Positions 2,281 to 23,974 of a DNA stretch of 64,000 bases are shown here, one piece after another. The stretch's first letter is position 1. Every line of letters starts with the position of its first letter. The stretch is from Actinomycetes bacterium (lineage in GTDB: Bacteria; Actinomycetota; Acidimicrobiia; Acidimicrobiales; Bog-793). The notes beneath the pieces are model-generated. The model worked only from the letters and a program-made list of their open reading frames with translations, made no database searches and was not told where the DNA came from. Where the stretch lies: assembly GCA_021798985.1 (NCBI GenBank), contig JAJZBI010000021.1:8573-72572 (forward strand), read 5' to 3'. Made by a program: the position numbers and the translations under genes.

Positions 2281-3276
2281 ATGGAGTACCGAGCCTTTGG
2301 CCGGACTGGCGTGCAGGTGAGCACGCTGTGCCTCGGCGCGATGATGTTCGGCGGCCCGACCGACGAGAAGGACTCCGGCGCGATCATCGACGCCGCGCTG
2401 GACGCGGGCATCAACTTCCTCGACACGGCGAACGTCTACAGCCGCGGCCGGAGCGAGGAGGTCGTCGGAGCGGCCCTTCGGGCAAACGGCAAGCGGGACC
2501 GCATCGTGCTCGCGAGCAAGGTGCACGGCCGCATGGACGACGACGACCCGAACGCCTATGGCAACAGCCGCCGGCACCTGATCGAGCAGTGCGAGGCGTC
2601 GCTGCGCCGGCTCGGCACCGACTGGATCGACCTGTACCAGATCCACCGCCCCGAGCCCGCGACGCCGATCGACGAGACGCTGCGGGCGCTCGACGACCTC
2701 GTCCGTCAGGGAAAGATCCGCTACATCGGCTTCTCGACCTTTGCGGCCTGGCAGGTGGTCGAGTCGATCTATGTCGCGAAGGAGCTCGGGCTGAACCGCG
2801 TCGTCTGCGAGCAGCCGCCCTACAACCTCTTGGACCGCCGGATCGAGCGCGAGCTCGTGCCGGTGGCCGAGACCTACGGGCTCGCGCTCATCCCCTGGTC
2901 ACCCCTCGCGAGTGGCTTTTTGACCGGCAAGTACCGCCGCGGCGAGGACTACCCGTCCGACTCGCGCCTCGCCCGGCAAAACGGCGGCAACCGCACCTAC
3001 GGCGAGGCCGCGTTCGCGGTACTGGACGTCGTCGAGCAGATCGCGAAGGAGAAGGGCTGCACGCCCTCCCAGCTCGCGGTGGCTTGGTGTGCGGCCCAGC
3101 GTGCCGTCACGAGCCCGATCATCGGGCCGCGCACGATGGCTCAGCTCGAGGACAACCTCGGCGCCCTCGACGTAATGCTCAGCGACGCCGACTTCGATCG
3201 CCTCGACACCGTCGCCCTTCCTGGGCGCGCGAGCGCGACCTACTACGAGGCGGACTTCGGGCCGAGCGCCCGATAG
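2281..3276 (+). CDS. Aldo/keto reductase
   Basis: MEYRAFGRTG, LCLGAMMFG, DTANVY, SLRRLGTDWIDLYQIH, IIGPRT; AAGGAG RBS upstream of ATG 2281. Confidence 0.95.
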   Translation: MEYRAFGRTGVQVSTLCLGAMMFGGPTDEKDSGAIIDAALDAGINFLDTANVYSRGRSEEVVGAALRANGKRDRIVLASKVHGRMDDDDPNAYGNSRRHLIEQCEASLRRLGTDWIDLYQIHRPEPATPIDETLRALDDLVRQGKIRYIGFSTFAAWQVVESIYVAKELGLNRVVCEQPPYNLLDRRIERELVPVAETYGLALIPWSPLASGFLTGKYRRGEDYPSDSRLARQNGGNRTYGEAAFAVLDVVEQIAKEKGCTPSQLAVAWCAAQRAVTSPIIGPRTMAQLEDNLGALDVMLSDADFDRLDTVALPGRASATYYEADFGPSAR

Positions 3277-3282
3277 CACGGC

Positions 3283-3316
3283 GCAGCGGCCGGCGGGGAG
3301 CCCCGGCGGCCGCTGC
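3283..3316. terminator. GC-rich hairpin between convergent genes
   Basis: gcagcggccg (3283-3292) pairs perfectly with cggccgctgc (3307-3316). Confidence 0.55.
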
Positions 3317-3377
3317 CCACGCCGTCATGACGGGTGCGCCACGGCCCCGGCGCACGCCGATGGAACAGATCCTCAGC

Positions 3378-4547
3378 TCAGTCGTGTAGCGCCCGCATGG
3401 CGCGGTACAGCGCGGCCTTCTCTTCGATCCCGATGCCCGGTGCGCTCGAGGGGGCGAGGAAGCCGTGGTCGATCACGGCGTCATCGGCAAAGCCGCCGGC
3501 GGGGGAGAACTCGTTCGGGTAGGACTCGTTGCCACCGAGGTGCAGCGCCGCGGCGAGATGGACGGCGAACTGGTGTCCCCCGTGAGGGATGCAGCGCCGT
3601 GGCGAGATGTTGTGCTCGCGCAGCATCGCCAGGGTGCGCAGGTACTCGACGAGCCCGTAGCTGAGCGCGGGGTCGAACTGGAAGATGTCGCGCTCGGCCC
3701 GGACGTTGCCGTAGCGAACGAGGTTGCGGGCGTCTTGGTGGGAGAAGAGGTTCTCGCCGGTCGCGAGCGCGCCGTTGTAGGCGGCAGCGATCTCGGCGTG
3801 GGTGGCGTAGTCGAGCGGGTCGGAGGGCTCCTCATACCAGGCGAGCTGGTAGGGATCGAGCGCGTTCGCATACTCGAGCGCCGTGGCGAGGTCGAACCGC
3901 CCGTTCGCGTCGACCGCCAGCGCGTCGCCGTTGCCGCCGAGCACGTCCAAGACGGCCTCGATGCGCGCCAGGTCCTCGGCGAGCGGTGCGCCGCCGATCT
4001 TCATCTTCACGCGCACGTAGCCGGCGTCGAGAAAGCCGCGCATCTCGTCCTGCAGCTCAAAAAGCCCCTTGTTCGGCTGGTAGTAGCCGCCGGCCGCGTA
4101 GACGCTGACGCGCTCGTCCGGCGCGCCATCGCCGTAGCGATCGGCGACGAAGCGGGCGAGCGGCACGTCGGCGATCTTCGCGGCGAGGTCGAACAGCGCC
4201 ATGTCGAGGACGCCGACGGCGACGGAGCGCTCGCCGTGGCCGCCGGGCTTCTCGTTCGCCATCATCACGTCCCAGGCCCTTGCGGGATCGAGGTTCTCGC
4301 CGGTCGCATCCAGCAGATCTGCTGGCGCTGCGGCGAGAAGACGCGGGATCATCCGACGGCGCAAGATGTCGTGCTGGCTGTAGCGGCCGTTGGAGTTGAA
4401 GCCATAGCCGACGAGCGGGCTGTGGTCGCGTACCACGTCGGAGACGACCGCCACGATCGAGCAGTCCATCTGGTTGAAGTCGATCCAGGCGTTTCGGATC
4501 GAGGACGAGATCGGCAAGATCCCGTCGTGGATGGCGACGATCCGCAT
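3378..4547 (-). CDS. tarD: Enolase-superfamily enzyme, D-tartrate dehydratase (TarD)-like
   Basis: PISSSIRNAWIDF, GYGFNSNGRY, NEKPGGHGERSVAVG, KMKIGG, ATGENLFSHQDARNL, PHGGH match my recollection of the TarD subgroup. Confidence 0.8.
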   Translation of the reverse strand: MRIVAIHDGILPISSSIRNAWIDFNQMDCSIVAVVSDVVRDHSPLVGYGFNSNGRYSQHDILRRRMIPRLLAAAPADLLDATGENLDPARAWDVMMANEKPGGHGERSVAVGVLDMALFDLAAKIADVPLARFVADRYGDGAPDERVSVYAAGGYYQPNKGLFELQDEMRGFLDAGYVRVKMKIGGAPLAEDLARIEAVLDVLGGNGDALAVDANGRFDLATALEYANALDPYQLAWYEEPSDPLDYATHAEIAAAYNGALATGENLFSHQDARNLVRYGNVRAERDIFQFDPALSYGLVEYLRTLAMLREHNISPRRCIPHGGHQFAVHLAAALHLGGNESYPNEFSPAGGFADDAVIDHGFLAPSSAPGIGIEEKAALYRAMRALHD

Positions 4548-4899
4548 GTGCGCTCCTTTTCCCGGGCCGCGGTCCTCGCCCGAGGAGGGCGGAGTTGCGC
4601 GGCACGGCCGGCCCACTGCCGTCGCCGCGTCCGGGCCGCGCGATGGGGCCCGCTCTTCGTGCCGCACCGTAGCAGCGCGCTGCGGCGGCGTCGATTGAGG
4701 TCGGAACATTGCGCCGCAAAGGCGCTAGATGAAAGGATCGCTCGCGTCACGAAAGATGCCAGGAGGTTGCGATGACATCGGCGGCATTGCGTGGCAGGTC
4801 TTCGCTTGGTTCCGATCGAAGCGACCTGTCGCGTCACCAAAGGACCCAAGACGTCATCGCGCGGCGATCTGGCGCACCGGCAACGACCGGGGCGATGCG

Positions 4900-5949
4900 A
4901 TGACGCCGGAGCGGCGCGTCTACATCACGAGCGCGCTGGCCGCGCCGGGCGGCCCGAGCGATGGCGTCTACGGCTTTGTCCAAGACCCCGCGACCGGTGC
5001 GCTCTCGCCCATCGGCCCGCACGCGGCGGTCGAAGGGGCGAGCTTTGTCAGCCGCGACCGCACCGGCACCCATCTGTACACGTGCCGAGCCCGACCCGAC
5101 GCCGGCGCGGCGGCCTTTGCGGTGAACAACGACGGCAGTCTCGAGGCGCTCGGCGAGGTGCGCAGCGGCGCCGCGGGGGCATGCCATGTCTGCGTGGATG
5201 ACGCTTCGCGCTTCTTGTTCACCGCGCACTACGCGAGCGGGCATCTGAGCGTGCACCGACTGACGGCCAGCGGGGCGATCGCCGAGCGCTGTGATTTGGT
5301 GCTGCCGGAGGGCGCTGGACCGAACGCCGAGCGCCAGGAGCACGCGCACGCGCACTTCTGCTGGCCGATCCCCGGCACGGACCTGGTGATGCTGGTCGAC
5401 CTCGGCACGGACACATTGTGGTCCTATCGCGTCGACGCCGATACCGGTCGCCTCGAGCTCGTCGCGGCGAACCAGGCACCGTCCGGCTCGGGGCCCCGCC
5501 ACCTGCGCCCTTTTGGGATCGGGGCGCTCCTCGTCACCGGCGAGCTCGACTCGACGCTGATGGCGTTCCAATTCGATCGGACGGCGGGAACCGCGCGCCT
5601 GGTCGAGGCGCTGCCGGCCTCGGTGCGCGCCGGCGCGGGCGACAACGCGCCATCGGAGCTCGCGCTCAGCCGGGACGGGCGCTTTTGCTATGTCGCCAAC
5701 CGCGGGCCGGACACCGTGGCGGTCTTCTCGCTCGAGGGGGGATCGCCCGCCCGCGTCGGCGAGGTCCCTTGCGGCGGGGAGATCCCGCGGCACCTGGCGG
5801 TCATCGGGGACTTCCTCTACGTGGCCAACCAAGAGTCCGGCAGCGTCGCGGTCTTCGCGCTCGGCGATGACGGCATTCCGCAGCCCACCGGCTTGGACGT
5901 GCCGCTCGAGCGGCCCTTTTGCGTGCGGGCCCTGCCAGTCGCGCCGTGA
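4900..5949 (+). CDS. Beta-propeller lactonase (6-phosphogluconolactonase/YbhE family)
   Basis: AHYASG, HAHAH, DLGTD, GSGPRH, YVANRG, PRH repeats. Confidence 0.9.
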   Translation: MTPERRVYITSALAAPGGPSDGVYGFVQDPATGALSPIGPHAAVEGASFVSRDRTGTHLYTCRARPDAGAAAFAVNNDGSLEALGEVRSGAAGACHVCVDDASRFLFTAHYASGHLSVHRLTASGAIAERCDLVLPEGAGPNAERQEHAHAHFCWPIPGTDLVMLVDLGTDTLWSYRVDADTGRLELVAANQAPSGSGPRHLRPFGIGALLVTGELDSTLMAFQFDRTAGTARLVEALPASVRAGAGDNAPSELALSRDGRFCYVANRGPDTVAVFSLEGGSPARVGEVPCGGEIPRHLAVIGDFLYVANQESGSVAVFALGDDGIPQPTGLDVPLERPFCVRALPVAP

Positions 5950-6151: not shown

Positions 6152-7561
6152 ATGGCCAGCACCAGCGTCGGGTACTCGATCACCTTGCGCGTCGAGGCGC
6201 CCGCCACGACCAATGCGGCGGGCGAGCTTGTCGGGGTAATTGGCCAGGCAGGAGCGCTCGTCACCGCGCTCGATCTGGTCGAGAGTCGGGACCAGACCGT
6301 GGTGCTCGACATCTCCTGCAACGCGATCGACAGCGCGCACGTCGAGCGCATCCGCGAGGCGGTCGCTGCGCTGCCCGGCGTCACGGTCGGCCCGGTCTCG
6401 GACACCACGTTCTTGATCCACCTCGGCGGCAAGCTCGAGGTCAACGCGAAGGTGCCGCTTCGCCACCGCGATGATCTCTCGCGCGCCTACACGCCCGGAG
6501 TCGCCCGCATCTGCCTGGCAATCGCTGAACAGCCCGAGGTTGCGCGCAATCTCACCATCAAGAAGAACACCGTCGCTGTGGTCACCGACGGCTCGGCGGT
6601 GCTCGGGCTCGGCAACCTCGGCGCGGCGGCGGCCTTGCCGGTGATGGAGGGCAAGGCGGCGCTGTTCAAGCACTTCGGGAACGTCGATGCCTGGCCGGTC
6701 TGCTTAGACACCCAGGATCCGGACAAGATCGTCGAGATCGTGAAGGCGATCGCGCCCGCCTATGGCGGGATCAACCTCGAGGACATCGCCGCGCCGCGCT
6801 GTTTTGCCATCGAGCAGCGCCTGCGCGAGGAGCTCGACATCCCGGTCTTCCACGACGACCAGCACGGCACGGCGATCGTCGTGCTGGCGGCGTTGATGAA
6901 CGCGCTCGCCATCGTCAACAAGAAGCTCACCGACGTCCGCATCGTGCTCTCGGGGGTGGGCGCAGCCGGGAGCGCGATCATCCGGCTCTTGCAGCTCGAG
7001 GGGGCCCGCAACCTGATCGCGTGCGACCGTCACGGCGCGCTGACCCGGGCGCGTACTGCGTCGGATCCCGTGCGGGGCTGGATCGGCGAGCAGACCAATC
7101 CCGACAACGTGTCGGGAACCCTCGCCGAGGTGCTCGCCGGTGCCGACGTCTTCATCGGCGTCTCCGCACCGAACCTGCTCATCGGCGACGACATCGCCAA
7201 GATGGCCGACGACGCGATCGTCTTCGCGCTGTCGAATCCCGATCCTGAGGTCGACCCGATCGAGGCCGGCAAGCACGCCGCAGTGGTGGCGACGGGACGC
7301 TCGGACTTTCCCAATCAGATCAACAACGTGCTCGCGTTCCCCGGCGTGTTCCGCGGCCTGCTGGACTGCGGCGCCCGCGACATCCCTGACGAGATGCTCG
7401 TGGCCGCCGCCCGGGCGATCGCCAGCGTGGTCGCTCCCGAGGCGCTGAATGCTGGCTACGTCATCCCGAGTGTGTTCGACCCGGCCGTCGCGCCAGCGGT
7501 TGCCGCCGCGGTGCGAGAAGTGGCGAACGAGCGAGCTGCCGGGGCGCCAGCTCACCGCTGA
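6152..7561 (+). CDS. NAD-dependent malic enzyme with N-terminal ACT domain
   Basis: DLSRAYTPGVA, VTDGSAVLGLGN, INLEDI, FHDDQHGTA, ATGRSDFPNQINNVL. Confidence 0.93.
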   Translation: MASTSVGYSITLRVEAPATTNAAGELVGVIGQAGALVTALDLVESRDQTVVLDISCNAIDSAHVERIREAVAALPGVTVGPVSDTTFLIHLGGKLEVNAKVPLRHRDDLSRAYTPGVARICLAIAEQPEVARNLTIKKNTVAVVTDGSAVLGLGNLGAAAALPVMEGKAALFKHFGNVDAWPVCLDTQDPDKIVEIVKAIAPAYGGINLEDIAAPRCFAIEQRLREELDIPVFHDDQHGTAIVVLAALMNALAIVNKKLTDVRIVLSGVGAAGSAIIRLLQLEGARNLIACDRHGALTRARTASDPVRGWIGEQTNPDNVSGTLAEVLAGADVFIGVSAPNLLIGDDIAKMADDAIVFALSNPDPEVDPIEAGKHAAVVATGRSDFPNQINNVLAFPGVFRGLLDCGARDIPDEMLVAAARAIASVVAPEALNAGYVIPSVFDPAVAPAVAAAVREVANERAAGAPAHR

Positions 7562-7801: not shown

Positions 7802-8710
7802 ATGGCAGGTGGCGGAACGATCCGACCGAGCGCGCTCGCGACCGTGGTCGCGGTCACGGCGACGCCGTTCGATGGCTCGGGGGGCATCGACGCCAAGGCC
7901 ATGGAGCGGGTGGTCGACCGCCTCGTCGAGGGCGGGATCTCGGTGCTCGTGCCGGCGGGCAACACCGGCGAGTTCAATGCGCTGAGCCAGTCCGAATGGG
8001 ACGAGAGCGTGTCGATCACGGTGGCGCGTGCCGGGGGAGCGATCGTCATGCCGGGGGTCGGGCGCGACCTCGCGACGGCGATCCACCAGACGCGCCGTGC
8101 ACGCGAGCTCGGCTGCCCGATCGTGATGGTGCACCAGCCGCTCGACCCGTTCATCTCTGGCGAGGGATGGATCAACTACCACGAGGCGATCCATCAGGCC
8201 GTGCCCGACATCGCGTTGTGCGCCTACGTGCGCGACGCCCGGCGCAGCGTCGGCGAGGTCGCCCGTCTTGCTGCGCTCGAGGGCGTCGTCGGCATCAAGT
8301 ACGCCGTCGGCGACCCGCCGGCTTTTGCCGAGCTGGTGCAGCGCAGCGACGCGGACCAGGTGGCGCTCGTGTGCGGGCTGGCCGAGCGCTGGGCGGTCTC
8401 CTTCGCCGCATCCGGGGCGGTGGGATTCACCTCCGGGCTCGCTGGTGTGGTGCCCAAGCTCTCCCTCGAGCTGCTCGGTGCGTTGCAGGCCAACGACTAT
8501 GCCCGGGCACGTGAGCTCGTCGCGCTCGTCGAGCCCTTCGAGCGTCTGCGCGCACGGGACGGCTCGGCCTACAACGTCTCCGCGGTCAAAGCGGCGCTCT
8601 CGGCGCTCGACATCTGCGCGCCGACCGTCCGCCCGCCGGCCAGCGCGCTCCCCGAGGAGTTCCACCCGATCGTGGCGCGCTTCATCGAAGCGACCGGCGC
8701 GACGGCCTGA
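7802..8710 (+). CDS. Dihydrodipicolinate synthase-family (class I aldolase/dehydratase) protein
   Basis: TPF, GNTGEF, Schiff-base Lys in GIKYA; GAGGAGG RBS. Confidence 0.88.
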   Translation: MAGGGTIRPSALATVVAVTATPFDGSGGIDAKAMERVVDRLVEGGISVLVPAGNTGEFNALSQSEWDESVSITVARAGGAIVMPGVGRDLATAIHQTRRARELGCPIVMVHQPLDPFISGEGWINYHEAIHQAVPDIALCAYVRDARRSVGEVARLAALEGVVGIKYAVGDPPAFAELVQRSDADQVALVCGLAERWAVSFAASGAVGFTSGLAGVVPKLSLELLGALQANDYARARELVALVEPFERLRARDGSAYNVSAVKAALSALDICAPTVRPPASALPEEFHPIVARFIEATGATA

Positions 8711-8797: not shown

Positions 8798-10525
8798 TCA
8801 GTGGATGGCCGGCTCGGGCGTGGGCGGGCCGGCCTGGAGGAAGCTGAGGTCGCAGCCTTCGTTCGCCTGGCCGATCGAGTCGCTGTAGAGCTTTCCCCAC
8901 CCCCGCTCGTAGTGCGCGGGCGGCGGCGTCCAGGCCGCCCGTCGGCGGGCGAGCTCCTCGTCGCTCACCTCGAGCTGCAGCCGGCGAGCGGGCACGTCCA
9001 AGGTGATGCGATCCCCGCTTCTCACGAGCGCGAGCGGCCCGCCGGCGGCCGACTCGGGGGCGACGTGGAGCACGCAGGTGCCGTAGCTCGTCCCGCTCAT
9101 CCGGGCGTCTGAGATCCGCACCATGTCTCGGATCCCCTCGCGAAGGAGCTTGGCTGGGAGGGGGAGCTGGCCCCACTCGGGCATGCCCGGGCCCCCGATC
9201 GGTCCGGCCTGGCGCAGCACGAGCACCGAGTCCGGTCCGACCTCGAGGTCCTCGCTGTCGATGCGCGCCGCCATGTCGTCGTAGTCCTCGAAGACGACCG
9301 CCGGGCCAGTGTGCACCAAGAGCTCGGGAGCAGCCGCGGTCTGCTTGATCACCGCGCCCTTTGGGGCGAGGTTGCCGTGTAGCACGGCGAGACCCCCCTC
9401 TGGCCACAGCGGGTTGTCGAGGGTGCGGATCACCTCGTCGTTGTAGACCTCGGCGCCGGCGATCTGCTCACCGATGGTCGTGCCGTTGACGGTGCGCGCG
9501 TCGAGGTGCAGCAGGTGGGAGATGCGCGCCATGAGCCCGCGCAGGCCCCCGGCGTAGAAGAAGTCCTCCATCAGGTACTCACCGGAGGGCGCGAGGTTGG
9601 CGAGGGTCGGCACGCGCCGTGACAGCTCGTCGAAGCGCTCCAGGCCGAGCTCGATGCCGGCGCGCCGCGCCATGGCGATCAGGTGGATGACCGAGTTGGT
9701 CGAGCCGCCGAGGGCCGCGACGACCGTGACGGCGTTGTCGAAGGCCTCCTCGGTCAGCAAGGCCTCCGGGGTGAGGCCGAGGCGGACGACCTCGACCGCC
9801 TGGCGGCCGGCCAAGGCTGCCATCTGGGCGTGGCGAGAGTCTGCGGCGGGCAGCGAGGAGGCGCCGGGAAGCGTGAGGCCGAGTGCCTCGGTCGCCGCCG
9901 TCATCGTCGAGGCCGTGCCCATTGTCATGCAATGGCCCGCGGAGCGGGCGATGCCCTGCTCGATCTCTTCGACCTCGGCGCGTCCGATCAGCCCGGCACG
10001 ACGATCGGCCCACATCCGCCAGGCCGACGTGCCGCTCGCCAAGGTCTTGCCGTGCGCGTTGCCCCGCAGCATGGGCCCGGCGGGCAGGAACACCGAGGGG
10101 ATCCCGGCGCTCGTCGCCCCCATCACGAGGGCGGGCGTGGTTTTGTCGCAGCCGCCCATGAGCACGGCGCCGTCGACGGGATAGGAGCGCAGCAGCTCCT
10201 CGACCTCCATCGACAACAGGTTGCGATAGAGCATGCTCGAGGGCTTTTGGATCGGCTCGGACAGCGAGAGCGCCGGCATCTGCAGGGGAAACCCCCCGGC
10301 TTGCCAGACGCCGCGCTTCACCTCTTCCACGCGCTGGCGGAAATGCTGATGGCACGGATTGATGTCCGAGCCGGTATCGACGATCGCGATCACGGGTTTC
10401 CCGAGGAAATCCTCGGGGGTGTAGCCCATCTGGCGAAGACGCGACCGGTGCCCGAAGCTCCGCAGGTCATCTGGCGCCCACCAGCGCGCGCTTCGCAGGT
10501 TCCCGCTTTCGTTCTCGCCCGTCAT
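8798..10525 (-). CDS. IlvD/Edd-family sugar-acid dehydratase (L-arabinonate dehydratase-like)
   Basis: LRSARWW, SDINPC, GCDKTTP, HCMTMGTASTM, GGPGMPE, SDARMSGTSYG. Confidence 0.9.
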   Translation of the reverse strand: MTGENESGNLRSARWWAPDDLRSFGHRSRLRQMGYTPEDFLGKPVIAIVDTGSDINPCHQHFRQRVEEVKRGVWQAGGFPLQMPALSLSEPIQKPSSMLYRNLLSMEVEELLRSYPVDGAVLMGGCDKTTPALVMGATSAGIPSVFLPAGPMLRGNAHGKTLASGTSAWRMWADRRAGLIGRAEVEEIEQGIARSAGHCMTMGTASTMTAATEALGLTLPGASSLPAADSRHAQMAALAGRQAVEVVRLGLTPEALLTEEAFDNAVTVVAALGGSTNSVIHLIAMARRAGIELGLERFDELSRRVPTLANLAPSGEYLMEDFFYAGGLRGLMARISHLLHLDARTVNGTTIGEQIAGAEVYNDEVIRTLDNPLWPEGGLAVLHGNLAPKGAVIKQTAAAPELLVHTGPAVVFEDYDDMAARIDSEDLEVGPDSVLVLRQAGPIGGPGMPEWGQLPLPAKLLREGIRDMVRISDARMSGTSYGTCVLHVAPESAAGGPLALVRSGDRITLDVPARRLQLEVSDEELARRRAAWTPPPAHYERGWGKLYSDSIGQANEGCDLSFLQAGPPTPEPAIH

Positions 10526-15120: not shown

Positions 15121-15992
15121 GCGCGATCACAGCACCAACGGTGCGCGGCATCGGTGGCGGGGGATGGGGGCAGATGCGGGCGAAGCTCAACTCCGCGCGC
15201 CTGCACCTGTTCGTCCCACTGACGCTCTATCTGCTGTTCACCTTGGTGCCCTTTTATTGGATGGTCGTCTTCGCCTTCCGGCCGACCACCTCGCACAATC
15301 CCTATCCCTGGCCGATTACCCTCGCCAACTTCAAGGTGGTCTGGAACGTCCTTGGATTCGGGACGTTCTTCGAGAACAGCGTGATCGTCGGGGTCGGCGT
15401 GCTGATCGGCCTGAACGTGATCTGCGCCATGGCGGGCTATGCGCTCGCGCGCTTCAAGTTCGCCGGGCGCGGCGCGTTGATCTTGATCTTGCTCTGCACC
15501 CAGTTCGTGCCGGGCGTGATGTTGTTGATCCCGCTCTTTGTGATCTTCCGGCACCTCGGGCTGATCGACAACCTCTTCGCGTTGATCATCGCCGACATCG
15601 TCTTCCAGCTGCCCTTGACCTCGCTGTTGATGAGCGGCTTTATCCGCAACGTTCCCGTCGAGCTCGAAGAGGCCGCCATGGTCGATGGCTGCTCTCGGGT
15701 GCGCGCGTTCTTGTCCGTCACGCTGCCGCTACTGCGCCCGGCCTTCGTGGCCATCGGGTCGTTCGCCTTCATCGGCAGCTGGAACAACTTCTTGTTCGCC
15801 CTGATGTTCATGTCGAGCCAGAACCACTTCACCTTGCCGGTCGGCCTGGATTACACGATCGGTGAGTTCAGCGTGAACTTCGGCGCACTGGCCGCCGGCG
15901 GCCTGATCGCCGCCGTGCCGGTCGTCATCATCTTCGCCTTCGTCCAGAAGTACCTGGTGCAGGGCTTGACCTTCGGCGCTGTGAAGGGCTGA
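15117..15992 (+). CDS. Carbohydrate ABC transporter permease
   Basis: GYALARF, VPVELEEAAMVDG, VQGLTFGAVKG. Confidence 0.93.
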   Translation: MSAITAPTVRGIGGGGWGQMRAKLNSARLHLFVPLTLYLLFTLVPFYWMVVFAFRPTTSHNPYPWPITLANFKVVWNVLGFGTFFENSVIVGVGVLIGLNVICAMAGYALARFKFAGRGALILILLCTQFVPGVMLLIPLFVIFRHLGLIDNLFALIIADIVFQLPLTSLLMSGFIRNVPVELEEAAMVDGCSRVRAFLSVTLPLLRPAFVAIGSFAFIGSWNNFLFALMFMSSQNHFTLPVGLDYTIGEFSVNFGALAAGGLIAAVPVVIIFAFVQKYLVQGLTFGAVKG

Positions 15993-16153
15993 TGGGGTCA
16001 TGGAGCGTCACGCGCTCACCTCGGTCGCGTTGGCCGCGGGAGCACGGACGATGGGGGGACGTGGGGCCGCCTGGCGCCACGACCGCAGGTCGCGATGAGA
16101 CGTCGCGAAGCAGTACCAGCAAGCCACAGGGAAGCCAACGAAATGGGGGTGGC

Positions 16154-17494
16154 ATGAAGAAATATCTCGGACGCCTGGCGGTGGGTCTCGCCGCAGGCTC
16201 GATGGCGGCGACCGGAATCGGCGTCGGCGCCGCATCGGCGTCGAACGCGCACCGCGCGGTCGCCCACAAGGCCAAGTCGGTAACGATCACCTTCTGGGAC
16301 GACAACGGTGGGCCGCGGACGCCCATCTACATGCACCTGATCAAGCTCTTCGAGCGTCAGAACCCGAACATCAAGGTGAAGTACGTCGGCATTCCGGACA
16401 CCTCGGTGATCGAGAAGTACGACACCGCGATCCAAGGTGGCTCGCCGCCCGACATCGCCTCGATCCCCGGCGGGGACCTGGCCGGCATCATCGCCCAGAA
16501 CGCGCTGATCCCGCTTAACAAGTACTACCAGTCGAGCAAGATCTACGGTCAGCTGCTGCCGACGCTGCTCAAGCCGACCGAGGCGATCTCGCCCGACGGC
16601 AAGACGCTGTACGCGCTGCCGTTCTCGGGCGTGCCGGCCACGCTGTGGTGCAACCTCAACATCCTTCGGCCGGCCAAGGTCACCTGCCCGACGACCTGGA
16701 ACGCGTTCTTTAGCGACGCGGTGAAGCTGACCGATGCCAACAAGGGCATCTATGGCTTCACGATGCGTGGCTCTTCGGGCGCCACGGTGCAGCTGATCGA
16801 TGAGATGATCTCCTACGCCGGTCTGAAGCGCTTCTTCCAGCCGGACGGCAAGACGAGCCTCCAGAGCCCACGCGTGCTGCAGTTCCTGCAGAAGTTCGTG
16901 GGCCTCTACAAGAAGGCGACACCGTCTGCTGACGTCGACAACGCGTACCTGCAGATGGTGGCCGAGTTCGACAGCAACAAGATCGGCATGATGCTGCACA
17001 ACCTCGGCTCGTACGCGAGCAACGTGGCAGCTGTCGGCGGCAAGCAGAACCTGGTCGGCGAGCCCGACCCGGCGGGCCCGTTCAACAAGGGCCGCGTCAC
17101 GATGGCGGCGCCGGGGCTTGACACCTACGGGATCTTCAAGGACTCCAAGCACCAGGCACAGGCCTGGAAATTTGAGCAGTTCTTGTTGAGCGCGGCGTCG
17201 AATGGCTACTGGAACAAGCTCGTCGGTCAGCTGCCCGCCAACAGCGGTGTGCTGAAGCAGGCGTGGGTGCACCAGCAGCAGCCAGTCGGCGCGCTCTTGT
17301 CGGCGCTGTCGTCCAAGCACACCTACGCGGTGTCGCTTCCCAACTACCTCCCCCAATACGGCGCGATCCAGACCAACTCGGACCCGCTGTGGCAGGAGGT
17401 CATGACAGGCCAGATGACCCCGGCGCAGTGGCTCGACCAGCTCGCCTCGGCGCTCGACCAGGCGCAGTCAGAGTGGACGCACGGCCACAAGTAG
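16154..17494 (+). CDS. Carbohydrate ABC transporter substrate-binding protein
   Basis: Sec-type signal, ITFWD, PPDI, YALPF; adjacent to permeases. Confidence 0.92.
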   Translation: MKKYLGRLAVGLAAGSMAATGIGVGAASASNAHRAVAHKAKSVTITFWDDNGGPRTPIYMHLIKLFERQNPNIKVKYVGIPDTSVIEKYDTAIQGGSPPDIASIPGGDLAGIIAQNALIPLNKYYQSSKIYGQLLPTLLKPTEAISPDGKTLYALPFSGVPATLWCNLNILRPAKVTCPTTWNAFFSDAVKLTDANKGIYGFTMRGSSGATVQLIDEMISYAGLKRFFQPDGKTSLQSPRVLQFLQKFVGLYKKATPSADVDNAYLQMVAEFDSNKIGMMLHNLGSYASNVAAVGGKQNLVGEPDPAGPFNKGRVTMAAPGLDTYGIFKDSKHQAQAWKFEQFLLSAASNGYWNKLVGQLPANSGVLKQAWVHQQQPVGALLSALSSKHTYAVSLPNYLPQYGAIQTNSDPLWQEVMTGQMTPAQWLDQLASALDQAQSEWTHGHK

Positions 17495-17541
17495 GTCCAA
17501 ACAGCAAGTGCAGTCATCGGTGAAGTAGTACGTGGCCGACC

Positions 17542-17575
17542 CCGGCCCCCCGGGCAACGACGCCCGGGGGGCCGG
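17542..17575. terminator. 14-bp perfect hairpin after the SBP gene (terminator or mRNA stabiliser)
   Basis: ccggccccccgggc-aacgac-gcccggggggccgg. Confidence 0.65.
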
Positions 17576-17652
17576 CCGGCCCAAGGGCGTGAGCACTCCA
17601 GCGGTGCCATCCGCGAGGTGGTCCTTGCTCGCGCCAGCGGTTTTCGGGGAGC

Positions 17653-18582
17653 GTGGTGACGCTGCACGAAGCGGCGCAGGCCAGCGAACCCGAGAGAGAG
17701 TTGAGGACAACAGTGGTGCCAGGGGGCGGGAGACGAAACGGCGAGGGCGGGGCGGAGCAGGCGGTCGCGGTGCGCGGAGAGCTTGGCGCTTCGCACCAGC
17801 CGGTGAAGTCTGCGGCGCGGACCTTGGAGCTCGTCGAGTACTTCGCCCGCACCGGCGGGATGCACAGCCTGCGGGATTTGCATGAGGTCTTTGGCCACCC
17901 CAAGAGCAGCCTGCACGCGCTGTTGCGCACCCTGGCCGATGCCGGATGGGTGGAGGTTGACCGGACCGGCACGCTGTATGGGCTTGGGTTGCGGGCCCTG
18001 CTCGTTGGTATGTCCTACATCGACGGCGATGACGCCGTGGTCGGCGCGGCCGGAACCTTGAACTGGCTGGCGGCCGAGAGCACCGAGACGGTGCACATGG
18101 CGCGCCTCGATGGTCGCGACGTGGTCTACCTCGCGACGCGCGACGCCTCGCACGAGCTGCGGGTGATCTCGCGGATCGGCCATCGCTTGCCTGCGCACGC
18201 CACCGGGCTCGGCAAGGCGCTGCTCGCCGAGCACAGCGATGCGGAGCTGATGGACCTTCTGCCAGAGCGCCTCGAGGCGCTCACGCCGTCCACGATCACC
18301 GATCGGGACGCGCTGTTGGAGGATCTCGCCGAGACCCGGCGGCGCGGGTATGCGGTCGACCGCCAAGAGAACACGATCGGGTTGCGCTGCATCGGCGTCG
18401 CGCTGCACACGACAGCGGGCGTTCCTCGTGACGCGGTAAGCCTCTCGGTGCCGATCGGACGGATCGAGCCGGGACGCGAGCAAGCGCTCACGGCGCTGTT
18501 GCTGCGCGCGAAGGAGAGCATCGAGCGGGAGGGCTGGCGGACGGGAACCGCGGCGCGAGCCGCGGGCGAGGATGGGAGCTGA
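17653..18582 (+). CDS. IclR-family transcriptional regulator
   Basis: VKSAARTLELVE HTH, HATGLGKALLA, RRRGYAVDRQE; start uncertain. Confidence 0.93.
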   Translation: MVTLHEAAQASEPERELRTTVVPGGGRRNGEGGAEQAVAVRGELGASHQPVKSAARTLELVEYFARTGGMHSLRDLHEVFGHPKSSLHALLRTLADAGWVEVDRTGTLYGLGLRALLVGMSYIDGDDAVVGAAGTLNWLAAESTETVHMARLDGRDVVYLATRDASHELRVISRIGHRLPAHATGLGKALLAEHSDAELMDLLPERLEALTPSTITDRDALLEDLAETRRRGYAVDRQENTIGLRCIGVALHTTAGVPRDAVSLSVPIGRIEPGREQALTALLLRAKESIEREGWRTGTAARAAGEDGS

Positions 18583-19375
18583 GTTGGCGGTCGTCGTCAT
18601 TACCGGGGCAGCGGGGCGCATCGGGACCTACCTGCGGAGCGGCCTACGGCCCTTTGGCTGGGAGCTGCGCTTGTTGGACCGGCGCCCGATCCCCGACGAG
18701 CCCACCGCGGTGGTGGCTGACATCCGAGATCCCCAAGCGCTTGCGTCGGTGATGCAGGACGCCTTCGGCGTCGTGCATCTCGCCGGCGCAATCAGCCCGC
18801 GCGACAGCTTCGGCGACGTGCTTGCCGCGAACATCGAAGGGACCCACGCCGTGCTCGAAGCGGCACGCGTCGCCGGGGTCGAGCGGTTCGTCTTCGCGAG
18901 CAGCAACCACGCGAACGGCTTTGCCCCGCGCTCGGCGCCGGGGATCGCCGGGGCGCACGACCGGCCCGACTCGTTCTATGGGGTCTCCAAGGTCTTCGGC
19001 GAGTCGCTGTGCCGCCTGTATCACGACCGCTTCGGGATCAAGATGGCCTGTTTGCGCATCGGCTCGTGCTTCGATGTGCCACGGGTGCCGCGCATGCTGG
19101 GCAGCTGGCTCAGCCCGAGGGACGCCGCCGGGCTCGTCGACGCATGCCTGCGCAGCCCGGAGCTTGATTACAAGGTCTTCTACGCCATCTCGGGCAACAC
19201 GCGGCGGTGGTGGGATCTCGCCCCGATGCTCGAGCTCGGCTATGTCCCAAAAGACGACGCCGAGGCCTGGGCCGAGGAGGTGCTCGCCGAGTTCGGCGGC
19301 ATCGATCCGAGCGACCCCGACGAGCCGACGGGTGGGGACGCTGCCCGCCAGGGCGCGGCGGAGCCGGCCCGATGA
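18572..19375 (+). CDS. udh: Uronate dehydrogenase-like NAD-dependent epimerase/dehydratase
   Basis: ITGAAGRIG, FASSNH, DSFYGVSKVFGE, LRIGS; next to a glucarate dehydratase-like gene. Confidence 0.8.
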   Translation: MGAELAVVVITGAAGRIGTYLRSGLRPFGWELRLLDRRPIPDEPTAVVADIRDPQALASVMQDAFGVVHLAGAISPRDSFGDVLAANIEGTHAVLEAARVAGVERFVFASSNHANGFAPRSAPGIAGAHDRPDSFYGVSKVFGESLCRLYHDRFGIKMACLRIGSCFDVPRVPRMLGSWLSPRDAAGLVDACLRSPELDYKVFYAISGNTRRWWDLAPMLELGYVPKDDAEAWAEEVLAEFGGIDPSDPDEPTGGDAARQGAAEPAR

Positions 19376-20649
19376 CGAGGAACCGGCGCGACGAGCAGAT
19401 CGCCGCGGTGCGCATCACCCCGGTGGCCATGAAGGATCCGCCGCTGTTGAACTCGAATGGGATGCACGAGCCCTTCGCCTTGCGGGCGATCATCGAGTGC
19501 GAGACCGGCGACGGCTTGGTCGGCCTCGGGGAGACCTACGGCGAGCTCAAGCACCTCGAACGCTTGCGTGCCGCGGCGCCACAGCTGGTTGGCCTCGATC
19601 CCTTCTCGATCCACGAGCTGCACCGGCGCGTGGCGGTCGCGCTCGGCGAGGAGCCCGAGGGCGCCGAGCTGACGACGAGCCACTGGTCGCGAGACGTCGA
19701 GGAGACCTTCGCCGCGTTCGAGGTCGCCTGCTTCGACCTCCAGGGCCAGCGAAGCGGGCGACCGGTGTCGGATCTGCTCGGCGGCGCGGTCCGCGAGGCG
19801 GTCCCCTACAGCGCCTACCTCTTCTATCGTTACGGCGAGCACCCGATCGACCCAGGCTATGGCCCCGATGACTGGGGCGAGGCACTCGATCCGGCCGGCA
19901 TCGTCGCCCAGGCCTCGCGCATGGTCGAGCGCTACGGCTTCACCGCCCTCAAGCTAAAGGGCGGGGTGTTCCCCCCAGATGAGGAGATCGAGGCCGCGAT
20001 CGCGCTCGCCGAGGCGTTTCCGAACCACAAGGTCCGCATCGACCCGAACGCGGCCTGGGGGGTGGAGACCTCGATTCGCGTCGCCAAGGCGCTCGAGGGT
20101 CACCTTGAGTACTTGGAGGACCCCACCCCGACGATCGCCGGCATGGCCGAAGTGGCCAAGGTGGCCGCGATGCCGCTCGCGACGAACATGTGCGTCGTCG
20201 AGCTGGCACACGTGCCGCCGGCGGTCGCCGCAGACGCCGTGCAGATCATCTTGTCCGACCACCACTTCTGGGGCGGCCTCAGCGGATCGCGTCGCCTGGC
20301 GGGGTTGTGCGAGACCTTCTCGATCGGGCTGTCGATGCACTCGAACTCGCACTTTGGGATCAGCCTGGCGGCGATGACCCATCTCGCCGCGGCGACACCG
20401 AACCTCAACTACGCGTGCGACACCCACACGCCGTGGCTGGCGGGCGAGGACGTGATCAAGGAGCGACTGCGCTTTGTCGATGGCGCGATCGCCGTGCCGA
20501 GCGGCCCTGGCCTCGGGGTCAGCCTCGATCGCGACGCGCTCGGGGCGCTCGCCGAGCAGTACGTGTCGTGCTCGGTGCGCCGCCGCGATGACACCGGGTA
20601 CCGGCAGCGCTTCGACCCGAGTTATGTGCACAAGCGGCCCAGATGGTGA
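19372..20649 (+). CDS. gudD: Glucarate dehydratase-family enolase
   Basis: KDPPLLN, KLKGG, DPN, EDP, TNM, SMHSNSH, YACDTH. Confidence 0.82.
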   Translation: MTRNRRDEQIAAVRITPVAMKDPPLLNSNGMHEPFALRAIIECETGDGLVGLGETYGELKHLERLRAAAPQLVGLDPFSIHELHRRVAVALGEEPEGAELTTSHWSRDVEETFAAFEVACFDLQGQRSGRPVSDLLGGAVREAVPYSAYLFYRYGEHPIDPGYGPDDWGEALDPAGIVAQASRMVERYGFTALKLKGGVFPPDEEIEAAIALAEAFPNHKVRIDPNAAWGVETSIRVAKALEGHLEYLEDPTPTIAGMAEVAKVAAMPLATNMCVVELAHVPPAVAADAVQIILSDHHFWGGLSGSRRLAGLCETFSIGLSMHSNSHFGISLAAMTHLAAATPNLNYACDTHTPWLAGEDVIKERLRFVDGAIAVPSGPGLGVSLDRDALGALAEQYVSCSVRRRDDTGYRQRFDPSYVHKRPRW

Positions 20650-20741
20650 CCGGTGCCGTGTGGCGAGCCGTGCCCGGTTCGCTCACCACCCGCCTGCGCC
20701 AGGTCCGGGGGAACACGTTGGAAACAGAGGGGGAGTGAGCA

Positions 20742-21521
20742 GTGGAACAGTTCTTGCGTGAGCCGTGGCGGGACGGCAAGGCGGCGCTCGGCATCTGGTG
20801 CAGCGTCAGCGACACCTTGATCGCCGAGGCGCTCGCCTCGGTCAAACCCGACTACGTCTGTGTGGACATGCAGCATGGCCAGACTCATGCCGGCAACCTC
20901 GTCTCGATGATGCAGGCGGTCAAGGCCGGTGGCAGCGTGCCGATCGCCCGGGTGGCCGAGAGCAACCCGGCGCTCATCATGAAGGCGCTCGATGCCGGCG
21001 CACGCGGCGTCATCGTCCCGCTGGTGGAGAGCCGTGAGCAGGCCCAGCGCGCCGTCGAGGCCTGCCGCTTCCCTCCGCGGGGCACGCGCTCGTTCGGTCC
21101 GTACCGCGCCTCGATTACCGCCGAGAGCTCGGACCCCTACGAGCTCGAGCAGGTCGCCTGCATCGTGATGATCGAGACCGAGCGCGGGATCGCCAACTTG
21201 GAGGAGATCATCACCACCGAGGGAGTGACCGCCGCCTACGTCGGCCCGTCGGACCTCTCCCTCGCGCTCGGGCTGCCGCCCGGCTCGATCGACGCGCCCG
21301 AGTTCGTCTCGGTCCTCCAGGACATCCGCGAGGCCTGCGAGGCCCACGGCGTGGTCCCCGGCCTGCACTGCTATGAGGGGCGCACGGCGCTGCGCGCCGT
21401 CGAGCAGGGGTTCAAGATGGTCACCGTCGCGGTCGAGCTGCGCTTGCTGCGCGCAGCGCTTGCCCTCGAGCTCGACCTCGTGCGCTCGGCCCAGGCGCCC
21501 GCCGCGATCAGCGAGCGCTAG
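20742..21521 (+). CDS. HpcH/HpaI class II pyruvate aldolase (GarL-like)
   Basis: VDMQHG, ALDAGARGVIVP, MIET, YVGPSDLS. Confidence 0.88.
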   Translation: MEQFLREPWRDGKAALGIWCSVSDTLIAEALASVKPDYVCVDMQHGQTHAGNLVSMMQAVKAGGSVPIARVAESNPALIMKALDAGARGVIVPLVESREQAQRAVEACRFPPRGTRSFGPYRASITAESSDPYELEQVACIVMIETERGIANLEEIITTEGVTAAYVGPSDLSLALGLPPGSIDAPEFVSVLQDIREACEAHGVVPGLHCYEGRTALRAVEQGFKMVTVAVELRLLRAALALELDLVRSAQAPAAISER

Positions 21522-21525
21522 CGCC

Positions 21526-22389
21526 ATGGCCCTCCAATTCGCCGCCAACCTCTCCATCATCTTCACCGAGCTGCCGCTGCTTGAGCGCCCCGCCGCCGCC
21601 GCGGCCGCCGGGTTCTCGGCCGTCGAGTCGTGGTGGCCCTTTGCCGCTTCGGTGCCGACCGACCAGGAGCTCGCGGACTTCGAGGAGGCGATCGGCGAGG
21701 CCGGCGTCTCGTTGATCGCGCTCAACCTGGACGGCGGTGACCTTGCCGCTGGCGAGCGGGGCATCGCCTCACACCCCGGGGTGGACCAGCGCTTTGCCGA
21801 CAACCTCTCGTGCGCGCTCGGGATCGCAAAGCGCCAGGGCGTCCGCGTCATGAACGCGCTGTATGGCAACGCGGTCGAGGGCATGACGCGCGCGGTCCAG
21901 GACGATCTCGCCATCGAGCGCCTGGTGGTCGCCGCCAAGGCCGCCGAGGAGGTCGGGGCGCGCATCGTCGTCGAGACCCAGAATCACCTCGACAGCCCGC
22001 GGTACCCGCTGCGCACGCCTGCGGAGGTCATCGCGCTGTGTGAGAAGGTGCGCGCTGAGGGCGCCGGCGCCATCGGGTGGCTCTGTGACCTCTACCACGT
22101 GGCGATGGAGCAGATGGACCCGACGGCCGAGCTCGAGGCGCACTTCGCCGACATCGATCACGTCCAGATCGCCGACGCGCCCGGCCGCCACGAGCCGGGC
22201 AGCGGGTCGATCGACTTTCGCCGGGCGCTCGGGCGCCTGGTCGAGCTCGGCTATGACGGCTACGTCGCCTGCGAGTACCGCCCGAGCGGTCGAAGCGAGG
22301 AGAGCTTCGCCTGGCGGGCCGCGTTCGAGTCGCCCGACAGCACCGCAGCACCAAGCAACGGTCAAAGCGAGCAAGGAGCACGAGGGTGA
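21526..22389 (+). CDS. hyi: Hydroxypyruvate isomerase-family TIM barrel
   Basis: FAANLSIIFTELPLLER, CDLYH, HVQIADAPGRHEPGSG. Confidence 0.85.
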   Translation: MALQFAANLSIIFTELPLLERPAAAAAAGFSAVESWWPFAASVPTDQELADFEEAIGEAGVSLIALNLDGGDLAAGERGIASHPGVDQRFADNLSCALGIAKRQGVRVMNALYGNAVEGMTRAVQDDLAIERLVVAAKAAEEVGARIVVETQNHLDSPRYPLRTPAEVIALCEKVRAEGAGAIGWLCDLYHVAMEQMDPTAELEAHFADIDHVQIADAPGRHEPGSGSIDFRRALGRLVELGYDGYVACEYRPSGRSEESFAWRAAFESPDSTAAPSNGQSEQGARG

Positions 22390-23276
22390 AGGTCGCATTC
22401 ATCGGTCTCGGGGTGATGGGCGCCCCGATGGCGCGCAACCTGGTCAAGGCTGGCCACGAGGTGACCGGCTTCGACGTCGTGGACAAGGGCGTCCAAGCGC
22501 TCGTCGAGGCGGGCGGCAAGAAGGCCGAGTCGATCAAAGCGGCGCTCGAGGGGGCCGAGGTGGCGATCACGATGCTGCCCGACTCCCCCCAGGTTGAAGC
22601 GGTCGCGTTCGGTGAGGAGGGGCTGCTCGCGTCGGCGAAGGCGGGCCTGCTCTACATCGACAACAGCTCGATCGCCCCGCCGGTCGCCCGCCGCGTCTCT
22701 GCCGCCGCGCGCGAGCGCGGCCTGCGCCCCCTCGACGCGCCCGTGAGCGGCGGCGAGGCCGGCGCGATCGAGGGCAGCCTGTCGATCATGGTCGGCGGGA
22801 AGGCCGAGGACTTCGAGGAGGCTCGCCCGCTGCTCGAGGCGATGGGCTCGACGGTTGCCCACGTGGGAGGCGACGGCGCCGGCCAGACGGTCAAGGTGGC
22901 CAACCAGCTCGTCGTTGCCGGGGTGATCGAGGCGGTCGCCGAGGCCACCGTCTTGCTGCAGGCCTCCGACGTGGACGTCCCTGCGGCCTTGGACGTGTTG
23001 GCGGGTGGGTTGGCCGGCAACCGGATCTTGGACCGTAAGCGGGCCTCGATGCTGGCGGGGGACTTCAAGCCCGGCTTCCGGGTCGACCTGCACCACAAGG
23101 ACCTCGGCAACTTGCTGGCGACGGCGCGCGAGGCGGGCGTCTCGTTGCCACTCGGTGGCCTCGTCGCCGAACTGATGGCGGCGCTGCGCGCCCGTGGCGG
23201 CGGCTCGCTTGACCACTCGGCGCTGTTGTTGTTAGTCCAGGCGATGTCGGGTCGCGACGGCTCGGCCACCAAGTGA
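22386..23276 (+). CDS. garR: 2-hydroxy-3-oxopropionate (tartronate semialdehyde) reductase
   Basis: FIGLGVMG, TMLPDSPQV, DAPVSGG, VKVANQ, FKPGFRVDLHHKD. Confidence 0.88.
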   Translation: MKVAFIGLGVMGAPMARNLVKAGHEVTGFDVVDKGVQALVEAGGKKAESIKAALEGAEVAITMLPDSPQVEAVAFGEEGLLASAKAGLLYIDNSSIAPPVARRVSAAARERGLRPLDAPVSGGEAGAIEGSLSIMVGGKAEDFEEARPLLEAMGSTVAHVGGDGAGQTVKVANQLVVAGVIEAVAEATVLLQASDVDVPAALDVLAGGLAGNRILDRKRASMLAGDFKPGFRVDLHHKDLGNLLATAREAGVSLPLGGLVAELMAALRARGGGSLDHSALLLLVQAMSGRDGSATK

Positions 23277-23974
23277 GCGGGGCGCTCGCCCGCCTGGCGG
23301 GCTACGACAGCCCGACGCTGTCCAATGCCATCGAGGCGTTCGGCGTGCGGGGATTTGAGGTGGGCTTTTGCGGCCACGGCCTGAAGCACCTCGTCGGCGG
23401 GCCGGGCCCGCTCGTCGGCCGGGCGGTAACCGCCACGATGGGCTCGCGCGAAAAGCGCCCCGATGCCGAACAGCGAGCCGCGCTCTATGAGGCGGTCGCG
23501 GCGGTCGACGATCCGGTCGTGCTCGTCATCGTCGATGAGGACGAGCGACCCGGCCATGGCGCCTTCCTCGGCGAGGTCCAGGCGACGCTCTTTCGCCAGC
23601 TCGGCGCGGTCGGCATCGCCACGAACGGAGCGGTGCGCGACCTCGAGCAGCTCCGCGGCCTCGGCTTTGGCGCCTACGCCGGAGGCGTCGCCGTGAGCCA
23701 CGCCTACGCGCACCTGCATGCCGTCAACGTGCCGGTCGTGCTCGATCAGATGGAGATCGCCCCGGGCGATGTCCTGCACGCGGACGAGCACGGCGTGCTG
23801 GCGGTGCCGAGCGAGCTCGTGGAGCGCCTCCCGGCGGTCGCCGACGCGATCATCGCCGCCGAGGGCGACGTGTTGGCGTGGGTGGGCAGCCCGCAGTTCG
23901 CCACCGCCGAGATCCTCGAGCGGCTCGCCGCGGTGAAGACCGCAGCGGCGGGAGCGGTTCGAACGACCGAGTGA
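23273..23974 (+). CDS. RraA/HMG-aldolase family protein
   Basis: DSPTLSNA, VGRAVT, GEVQ, NGAVRD, PGDVLHADEHGV. Confidence 0.85.
   Translation: MSGALARLAGYDSPTLSNAIEAFGVRGFEVGFCGHGLKHLVGGPGPLVGRAVTATMGSREKRPDAEQRAALYEAVAAVDDPVVLVIVDEDERPGHGAFLGEVQATLFRQLGAVGIATNGAVRDLEQLRGLGFGAYAGGVAVSHAYAHLHAVNVPVVLDQMEIAPGDVLHADEHGVLAVPSELVERLPAVADAIIAAEGDVLAWVGSPQFATAEILERLAAVKTAAAGAVRTTE

Follow-up and report, generated by a model that had tools for sequence, protein, structure and literature searches.

The subject of this analysis is a window of 64,000 nucleotides (nt) from a metagenome-assembled genome (MAG) of the order Acidimicrobiales (contig JAJZBI010000021.1), in which a catabolic island at 2281-23974 ends in a compact operon, iclR-udh-enolase-hpcH-hyi-garR-rraA, at 17653-23974. 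This operon is predicted, with a probability of about 0.55, to turn a hexuronate (D-glucuronate and/or D-galacturonate) into pyruvate and D-glycerate without phosphorylated intermediates. In this lineage the usual ending of the oxidative uronate pathway, made up of KdgD and 2-oxoglutarate-semialdehyde dehydrogenase, was most likely exchanged for an aldolase ending like that of E. coli. A hybrid of this kind, joining a uronate dehydrogenase (Udh) entry to an aldolase/GarR exit, had been put forward in an earlier reading of the same DNA, referred to below as the original prediction. The hybrid is supported because its genes are coupled, because four copies of the arrangement are conserved, and because an HpcH-family aldolase stands in place of the KdgD and aldehyde dehydrogenase to which the relatives of its enolase are linked; the substrates are assigned from gene context.

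Genes in this window of ~70% G+C were called by third-position GC (GC3) and named with Pfam and NCBIfam, an NCBIfam equivalog being assigned when the score exceeded the curated cut-off. Coordinates are those of the window, and features lie on the plus strand unless stated otherwise. The window is located on contig C26 of a 3.76-Mb, 71-contig, 96.9%-complete MAG (G000). All of the genes named in the original prediction were found at 2281-23974; its gene list had overlooked the malic enzyme and the IclR-family regulator described below. A UvrD-type helicase gene lies downstream of the RraA-like gene, and the island therefore ends at 23974. Within the operon the genes are tightly packed: the first gene, encoding the IclR-family regulator (17653-18582; PF09339, PF01614), overlaps the start of udh by 11 nt, the sequence ATGA at 19372-19375 is common to the udh stop and the enolase start, and the genes downstream of the enolase follow at spacings of +92 nt (aldolase), +4 nt (Hyi-like), −4 nt (GarR) and −4 nt (RraA-like). 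Upstream of iclR, a GC-rich hairpin lies 3' of the stop codon of the solute-binding protein gene of an importer. This packing, together with the hairpin, indicates that 17653-23974 is most likely a single transcription unit, in which the genes from udh to rraA are predicted to be translationally coupled.

The protein encoded at 18572-19375 matches the crystallised uronate dehydrogenases 6mfh, 3ay3 and 3rft in the PDB (6e-58 to 1e-49), with which it aligns over residues 8-251 of 267. The segments TGAAGRIG, SSNH, YGVSK and RIGSC are identical to those of all three structures in this alignment; TGAAGRIG is presumably the NAD-binding glycine motif of the short-chain dehydrogenase/reductase (SDR) family, and YGVSK is taken to be its catalytic Tyr-x3-Lys. 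By these sequence features the protein is a member of the Udh family with a uronate as its presumed substrate, and it would oxidise the uronate to an aldarolactone that opens to the aldarate. Among actinobacteria, the Udh of Streptomyces viridochromogenes has already been characterised (PMC4476818). A second Udh-like paralogue, 46% identical, is encoded at G000:C49:64301-65020; it was set aside because its neighbours form another cluster, consisting of two GDPD genes and genes for a Gfo/Idh/MocA oxidoreductase, a xylose-isomerase-like protein, an ABC transporter, an enolase-superfamily protein and an IclR regulator.

The next gene (19372-20649) encodes a GlucD-subgroup member of the enolase superfamily whose close, full-length homologues are 3VDG, 3VC5, 3VA8 and 4IT1 (PDB matches of 1e-141 to 1e-163). 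These four, which we take to be structural-genomics entries, were deposited as "probable" or "putative" glucarate dehydratase, as "probable dehydratase" or as an MR/MLE protein. The gene had been called gudD-like, and as an identification with GudD this could not be upheld: the protein scores 252 bits against TIGR03247 (GudD; cut-off 828.7), it is 36% identical to E. coli GudD, true GlucD structures match only at 1e-64, and its family coexists with true GudD in Rhodococcus. It is accordingly placed in the distinct 3VDG/3VC5 family. When aligned with E. coli GudD and GudX, the protein retains the GudD residues H32, Y150, K205, K207, D235, N237, E260, N289, D313, H339, N341, H368 and R422, which are invariant in this comparison. 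The 3VDG-type enolase would either dehydrate the hexarate or open the lactone and eliminate water, in both cases yielding 5-keto-4-deoxy-glucarate (KDG); this step is proposed because the active-site residues of GudD are kept and because the neighbours of the family include KdgD, aldehyde dehydrogenase and Udh.

That neighbourhood was surveyed in a comparative set with one genome per species, in which more than 530 relatives of the enolase were found and the best 80 loci, all from Actinomycetota, were kept; neighbours were counted when present within the 10-kb flanks of the enolase gene. KdgD is a neighbour in 68 of the 80 loci (a representative one scoring 420 bits against NF002958, cut-off 278), aldehyde dehydrogenase in 52, IclR in 46 and Udh in 31, and neither an HpcH aldolase nor an RraA-like gene was found near the enolase in any of them (0/80 each). 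In most of its relatives the 3VDG-type enolase thus appears to belong to the canonical route that runs from Udh through a KDG-forming enzyme and KdgD to 2-oxoglutarate semialdehyde dehydrogenase. These neighbours provide the strongest argument that the product of the enolase would be KDG.

In the window, the enolase is followed instead by an aldolase. The protein encoded at 20742-21521 matches PF03328 with 107.7 bits (cut-off 25), and it shares with E. coli GarL the residues H50, R75, E153 and D179, which are the catalytic His and Arg and the two metal carboxylates. By domain match and catalytic residues it qualifies as a bona fide member of the HpcH/HpaI family of class II pyruvate aldolases; its best PDB match is the hydroxyketoacid aldolase 6r62 (9e-48), with GarL (1dxe) at 1e-32. 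Its position in the operon and its catalytic residues suggest that it would cleave KDG to pyruvate and tartronate semialdehyde. The latter would then be reduced to D-glycerate by the product of 22386-23276, which the equivalog TIGR01505 (364.5 bits, cut-off 340.75) identifies as a tartronate semialdehyde (2-hydroxy-3-oxopropionate) reductase of the GarR/GlxR type, and which is 46% identical to E. coli GarR over 288 residues. Between the two lies the gene for a hydroxypyruvate-isomerase-like (Hyi-like) TIM-barrel protein (21526-22389; PF01261), which may interconvert hydroxypyruvate and tartronate semialdehyde. Since the aldolase and the Hyi-like protein fall below every equivalog cut-off, their substrates can be proposed from context only. 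The final gene, in this as in the other three copies of the operon, encodes an RraA-like protein (23273-23974; PF03737, 86 bits). It is a distant member of the HMG/CHA aldolase / oxaloacetate decarboxylase family, with a best PDB match to 3noj at 9e-9 and 56.8 bits against TIGR02798 (cut-off 304.5), so that only its Pfam domain passes. Among the profile models, NF009559 (an upstream dehydratase, see below) and TIGR01505 were matched above cut-off, and scores for the GudD, GarL, HpaI, Hyi, KdgD and TIGR02798 models stayed below it.

Just upstream of the island, window 254-1927 encodes a thiamine-diphosphate enzyme whose nearest model is NF006052 (523 bits, cut-off 539). The glyoxylate carboligase model is absent among its 25 best NCBIfam matches, which makes it an improbable source of tartronate semialdehyde for GarR.

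As the original prediction stated, neither a glycerate kinase nor an aldehyde dehydrogenase is encoded in the window: the only PF02595 match in the genome is on contig C42, adjoining PEP (phosphoenolpyruvate) carboxylase, and none of the nine PF00171 matches is on C26. The C42 glycerate kinase would feed the D-glycerate into glycolysis, and the description of the route as kinase-free is consequently accurate as far as glycerate but not beyond it. No KdgD, GudD or GarD scored above cut-off in the window's genome, which does encode UxaC, the entry enzyme of the isomerase pathway.

The arrangement enolase-HpcH-Hyi-GarR-RraA was found in four sequences, namely the window's genome, the congeneric genome G732, the genome G628 from another genus of the same family, and the 204-kb metagenome contig L125. 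The operon is about 80-95% identical in G732, where synteny reaches from the TarD-like enolase gene (3378), at which the G732 contig begins, to the RraA-like gene with ~77-95% amino-acid identity. In G628 the operon is 55-74% identical and split over two contig ends, and the region from the DHDPS-like gene to the RraA-like gene is syntenic at 55-81% identity; in L125, synteny runs from the permeases to the RraA-like gene at 57-77%. Because synteny is kept in all three, the island is judged not to be a chance juxtaposition of genes. An orthologue of the enolase is present in 3 of 41 genomes of the family. Among 400 genomes of the class, aldolase homologues showed at most 52% identity, and no enolase, Hyi or GarR gene lay within 1.5 kb of any of them. 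Among 400 genomes of the order the only HpcH homologues were those of G628 and of one unrelated context. Metagenomic homologues of the aldolase at 60-86% identity do exist (~60 sequences), the close ones carrying source names such as those of "Actinomycetota bacterium" and "Acidimicrobiales bacterium" MAGs, which bears out, at the level of the phylum, the actinobacterium of the original prediction. In a quick maximum-likelihood tree limited to the best 80 enolase hits, the HpcH-linked enolases of the window, G732 and L125 form one fully supported clade, which is nested in a 99%-supported clade where 30 of the 34 other rows are KdgD-linked. This topology agrees with a single replacement of the pathway ending.

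Streptomyces locus L033, with Hyi and GarR genes near the enolase, was considered as a second hybrid and rejected, since a CAP-domain gene separates those genes and an aldolase is absent. The metagenome contig L124 (67% identical aldolase) has no dehydratase nearby, nor does L127, where a 53% identical aldolase occurs with Hyi-like and GarR-like genes, and these two contigs are uninformative. A 445-aa open reading frame is found between the binding-protein gene and iclR in L125 (L125:3620-4954, plus strand) and in G628 (L169, ~16274-17530), and is absent from the window and G732. It has no Pfam or NCBIfam match; in the ESM Atlas it falls among actinobacterial hypothetical proteins, with GHL10 glycosyl-hydrolase-like clusters as the nearest named ones (0.89-0.91), a weak lead.

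Several observations weigh against the proposed hexuronate route. The enolase carries a 6-residue deletion at GudD positions 263-268, a stretch in which the GudD metal ligand E266 presumably sits, and literature look-ups with 3VDG, 3VC5, 4IT1 and MSMEG_6132 retrieved no functional paper on its family. In four Rhodococcus/Rhodococcoides loci the 3VDG-type enolase adjoins a true GudD (68-69% identical to E. coli GudD); this proximity suggests that the two enzymes are probably not redundant and makes galactarate or a lactone, rather than glucarate, a reasonable guess at the substrate that the 3VDG-type enolase may use. Identity between the aldolase and E. coli GarL is only 29%, its scores are 132.5 bits against the GarL model TIGR03239 (cut-off 406.75) and 142.9 against HpaI (cut-off 368.8), and the solved structure closest to it is that of a promiscuous hydroxyketoacid aldolase. 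The Hyi-like protein likewise stays below its equivalog (263 bits against TIGR03234, cut-off 353.45), and the RraA-like protein has no place among the proposed steps. The MAG is 96.9% complete, and a KdgD gene could lie in the missing part. Finally, only four instances of the hybrid operon were found among the loci whose gene context was read.

A different exit for KDG must be weighed in connection with the gene at 7802-8710, which encodes a Schiff-base lyase or dehydratase of the DHDPS/NAL family (PF00701). The original prediction allowed for both exits in the island, and this part of it was not sustained. As a KdgD orthologue the protein was rejected, with 122.9 bits against KdgD model NF002958 (cut-off 278), 100.7 against TIGR03249 (cut-off 374) and 28% identity to actinobacterial KdgD; its best PDB matches, 3e96 and 3d0c, are both unassigned entries, and a class-wide search with it returned no close homologue. 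One might nevertheless suppose that this protein replaces KdgD without being its orthologue, that KDG leaves through it and through an aldehyde dehydrogenase whose gene lies elsewhere, and that HpcH, Hyi, GarR and RraA serve another substrate, one candidate being 4-hydroxy-2-oxoglutarate or glyoxylate-derived tartronate semialdehyde originating from the 1RVK- and TarD-type enolases described below. The best NCBIfam match of the DHDPS-like protein is indeed the KdgD subfamily, the RraA family includes 4-hydroxy-2-oxo-acid aldolases, and in G628 an aldehyde dehydrogenase gene (L169:5811-7322) directly follows the DHDPS-like gene, standing between it and the IlvD-type dehydratase gene. The window lacks this gene at that place, and its nearest homologue here (63% identity, G000:C67:123975-125474) lies among housekeeping genes. 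The DHDPS-like gene itself is 10 kb upstream of the udh operon, in a separate transcription unit where it is convergent with the gene for an IlvD/EDD-family L-arabinonate-type dehydratase (8798-10525, minus strand; equivalog NF009559, 936.1 bits, cut-off 882). The pair looks like a pentonate module of the Weimberg type whose last gene has been lost from the island, a reading that fits these genes better, and in all four copies of the operon the aldolase genes are predicted to be translationally coupled to udh and the enolase. An exit through the DHDPS-family protein is considered improbable on this balance. At G000:C24:68595-74469, genes for DHDPS-family, enolase-like and aldehyde dehydrogenase proteins occur within 6 kb, possibly as a further acid-sugar module.

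Alternatively, the Udh-like dehydrogenase and the 3VDG-type enolase could have substrates other than hexuronates and hexarates, for instance a further uronic acid, a further aldaric acid or an oxidised product of oligosaccharides, and the aldolase would then free hydroxypyruvate or some other fragment for Hyi and GarR. The hydroxyketoacid aldolase 6r62, the nearest solved relative of the aldolase, accepts hydroxypyruvate, and the E. coli route has no need of a Hyi-like gene; the failure to find a published function for the enolase family, the presence of other sugar-acid loci in the window and an importer of the CUT1 sugar/oligosaccharide type without an informative relative are compatible with the same idea. 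It is made unlikely by the conservation of the Udh motifs and of the substrate-binding residues of GudD, and by KdgD and Udh as the constant partners of the enolase family, which together constitute the textbook hexuronate route. The least plausible of the explanations considered is that the 24-kb region is a mosaic of unrelated catabolic operons, its halves having no functional link and offering no novelty at the level of a pathway. The genes of the region do fall into at least five transcription units, with both strands in use, no TarD-like, lactonase or malic enzyme gene was detected at the equivalent position of G628, and operator-like palindromes precede only the 1RVK-type operon and the importer, not iclR-udh. 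The synteny from the DHDPS-like to the RraA-like gene across two genera, and from the permeases to the RraA-like gene in the metagenome contig, speaks against such a mosaic, as does the sharing of loci by 1RVK-type and 3VDG-type enolases in Rhodococcus/Rhodococcoides as well; and even in a mosaic, the udh-to-rraA operon would stay a coherent unit. The hexuronate route with an aldolase ending is therefore retained as the preferred interpretation of the operon.

The 15 kb upstream of the operon consists of separate acid-sugar modules that travel with it in the family: a unit with a TarD-like enolase, a lactonase and a malic enzyme, the convergent DHDPS-like/IlvD-type pair, an operon of 1RVK-type enolase, aldo/keto reductase and SDR genes, and the CUT1 importer. 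The island opens with an aldo/keto reductase gene, AKR1 (2281-3276; PF00248, 284 bits, below all NCBIfam cut-offs), for which no counterpart was detected in the syntenic copy of G628; the contig of G732 starts at the next gene. This next gene (3378-4547, minus strand) encodes an enolase-superfamily protein of the D-tartrate dehydratase (Bll6730/TarD) family, matching PDB 4kem at 4e-156 and 2dw6, 2dw7 and 1tzz (Bll6730) at ~1e-145 over the full length. Bll6730, which we take to be TarD, the D-tartrate dehydratase, was reportedly identified as such by Yew et al. in 2006. The protein probably converts D-tartrate to oxaloacetate, a product that would suit the neighbouring malic enzyme (~6152-7561, its start picked from candidate codons; PF00390, PF03949; NF009501, 346 bits). 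Preceding its catalytic domains, the malic enzyme has an N-terminal stretch (window 6152-6400) with a weak match to ACT_4, which at E 6e-4 does not reach the Pfam cut-off. The 7-bladed beta-propeller lactonase at 4729-5949 (PF10282, 252.6 bits) is a candidate hydrolase of sugar-acid lactones or aldarolactones; its PDB relatives are uncharacterised or 6-phosphogluconolactonase-like, at 1e-29 or weaker.

The enolase-superfamily protein encoded at 10947-12107 belongs to the Agrobacterium 1RVK/4HCD family (PDB 1rvk, 4hcd and 4mmw, ~1e-151), and look-ups with 1RVK and Atu3453 found no publication on the function of this family. In the same operon are the aldo/keto reductase gene AKR2 (12101-13093; PF00248, 240 bits), which is kept in G732 and G628, and a gene for a glucose-1-dehydrogenase-like SDR (13157-13936; PF13561, PF00106; NF005559, 205 bits, cut-off 215). 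A 53% identical relative of the 1RVK-type enolase shares loci with the 3VDG-type enolase in Rhodococcus/Rhodococcoides (L043, L062). Both L043 and L062 contain a 1RVK-type enolase, a true GudD, a 3VDG-type enolase, KdgD and aldehyde dehydrogenase, and L043 has in addition a distant (30%) TarD-like enolase match; these loci look like an aldarate super-cluster and could help to assign the 3VDG and 1RVK families.

The importer (14089-17494) comprises two CUT1-type ABC permeases (14089-15120 and 15117-15992; PF00528 and NCBIfam permease matches) and a solute-binding protein (~16154-17494; PF01547) for which no informative PDB relative was found. The ABC importer of the original prediction is present as far as its permeases and binding protein are concerned, but an ATPase gene is absent at the locus. 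The importer segment (window 14000-18000) has a G+C content of 0.62-0.66, clearly below that of its surroundings (~0.70). Two palindrome-like operator candidates of the type CGTTCA-N6-TGAACG, with 0-2 mismatches, are located at 10744-10780 in the divergent promoter region, and a third candidate is found at 14064-14081, close to a promoter-like site at 14014-14043. The three sites (10744, 10763 and 14064) recur in G732 at unchanged positions; they precede the 1RVK-type operon and the importer, with none before iclR-udh.

The operon is a recombination of known modules and not new chemistry. Reviews have the oxidative uronate route ending at 2-oxoglutarate via KdgD (PMC6353982; PMC5703739), and a 2025 review draws both endings only in a composite map assembled from different organisms (PMC12076931). 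A natural operon joining Udh to the aldolase/GarR ending was not found described in the literature covered, in which the proteobacterial hexuronate regulons (Bouvier et al. 2019) were not included. It is possible, though doubtful, that the operon represents an undescribed natural oxidative route from hexuronate to pyruvate and glycerate, that the 3VDG/3VC5 family is a new hexarate (possibly galactarate) dehydratase or aldarolactone cycloisomerase, and that the RraA-like protein adds a step without counterpart in either parent pathway. If the predicted route is correct, it would constitute a natural swap of the ending of the oxidative uronate pathway in which carbon flows to pyruvate and glycerate and not to 2-oxoglutarate and CO2; the carbon and redox yields would change accordingly, which is relevant to engineering the use of pectin and glucuronate. 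The gene context also supplies a concrete functional hypothesis for the 3VDG/3VC5 family and a weaker one for the 1RVK family, both of which have solved structures.

Compared with the E. coli glucarate/galactarate pathway (GudD/GarD, GarL, GarR, GarK), the operon has the same succession of an HpcH aldolase and GarR, with the catalytic residues of GarL kept. It differs in that the kinase is encoded outside the operon, Hyi-like and RraA-like genes are added, and the aldolase is not a GarL equivalog; to our knowledge, E. coli K-12 has no Udh entry. That entry is shared with the oxidative hexuronate pathway of Agrobacterium tumefaciens and Pseudomonas (Udh, Gli/Gci or a lactonase with GudD/GarD, KdgD and KGSADH), which is likewise non-phosphorylative and employs an enolase-superfamily enzyme in the step to KDG, as is predicted here (PMC6353982). 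Unlike that pathway, the island contains neither KdgD nor an aldehyde dehydrogenase, no KdgD orthologue was found in the genome, and the predicted KDG-forming enzyme belongs to the 3VDG family instead of being Gci, GudD or GarD; the end product in Agrobacterium and Pseudomonas is 2-oxoglutarate, whereas pyruvate and glycerate are predicted for this operon. Among the upstream genes, the two other enolases are close full-length homologues of TarD (Bll6730) of Bradyrhizobium (~1e-145) and of the Agrobacterium 1RVK/4HCD enolase (~1e-151). The actinobacterial udh-iclR/aldehyde dehydrogenase-kdgD-enolase clusters of Lentzea, Streptomyces, Mycobacterium and Rhodococcus have an orthologous enolase (58-64% identity) and share IclR and Udh as its partners; in those clusters KdgD and aldehyde dehydrogenase precede the enolase, whereas here the aldolase, Hyi-like, GarR and RraA-like genes come after it.

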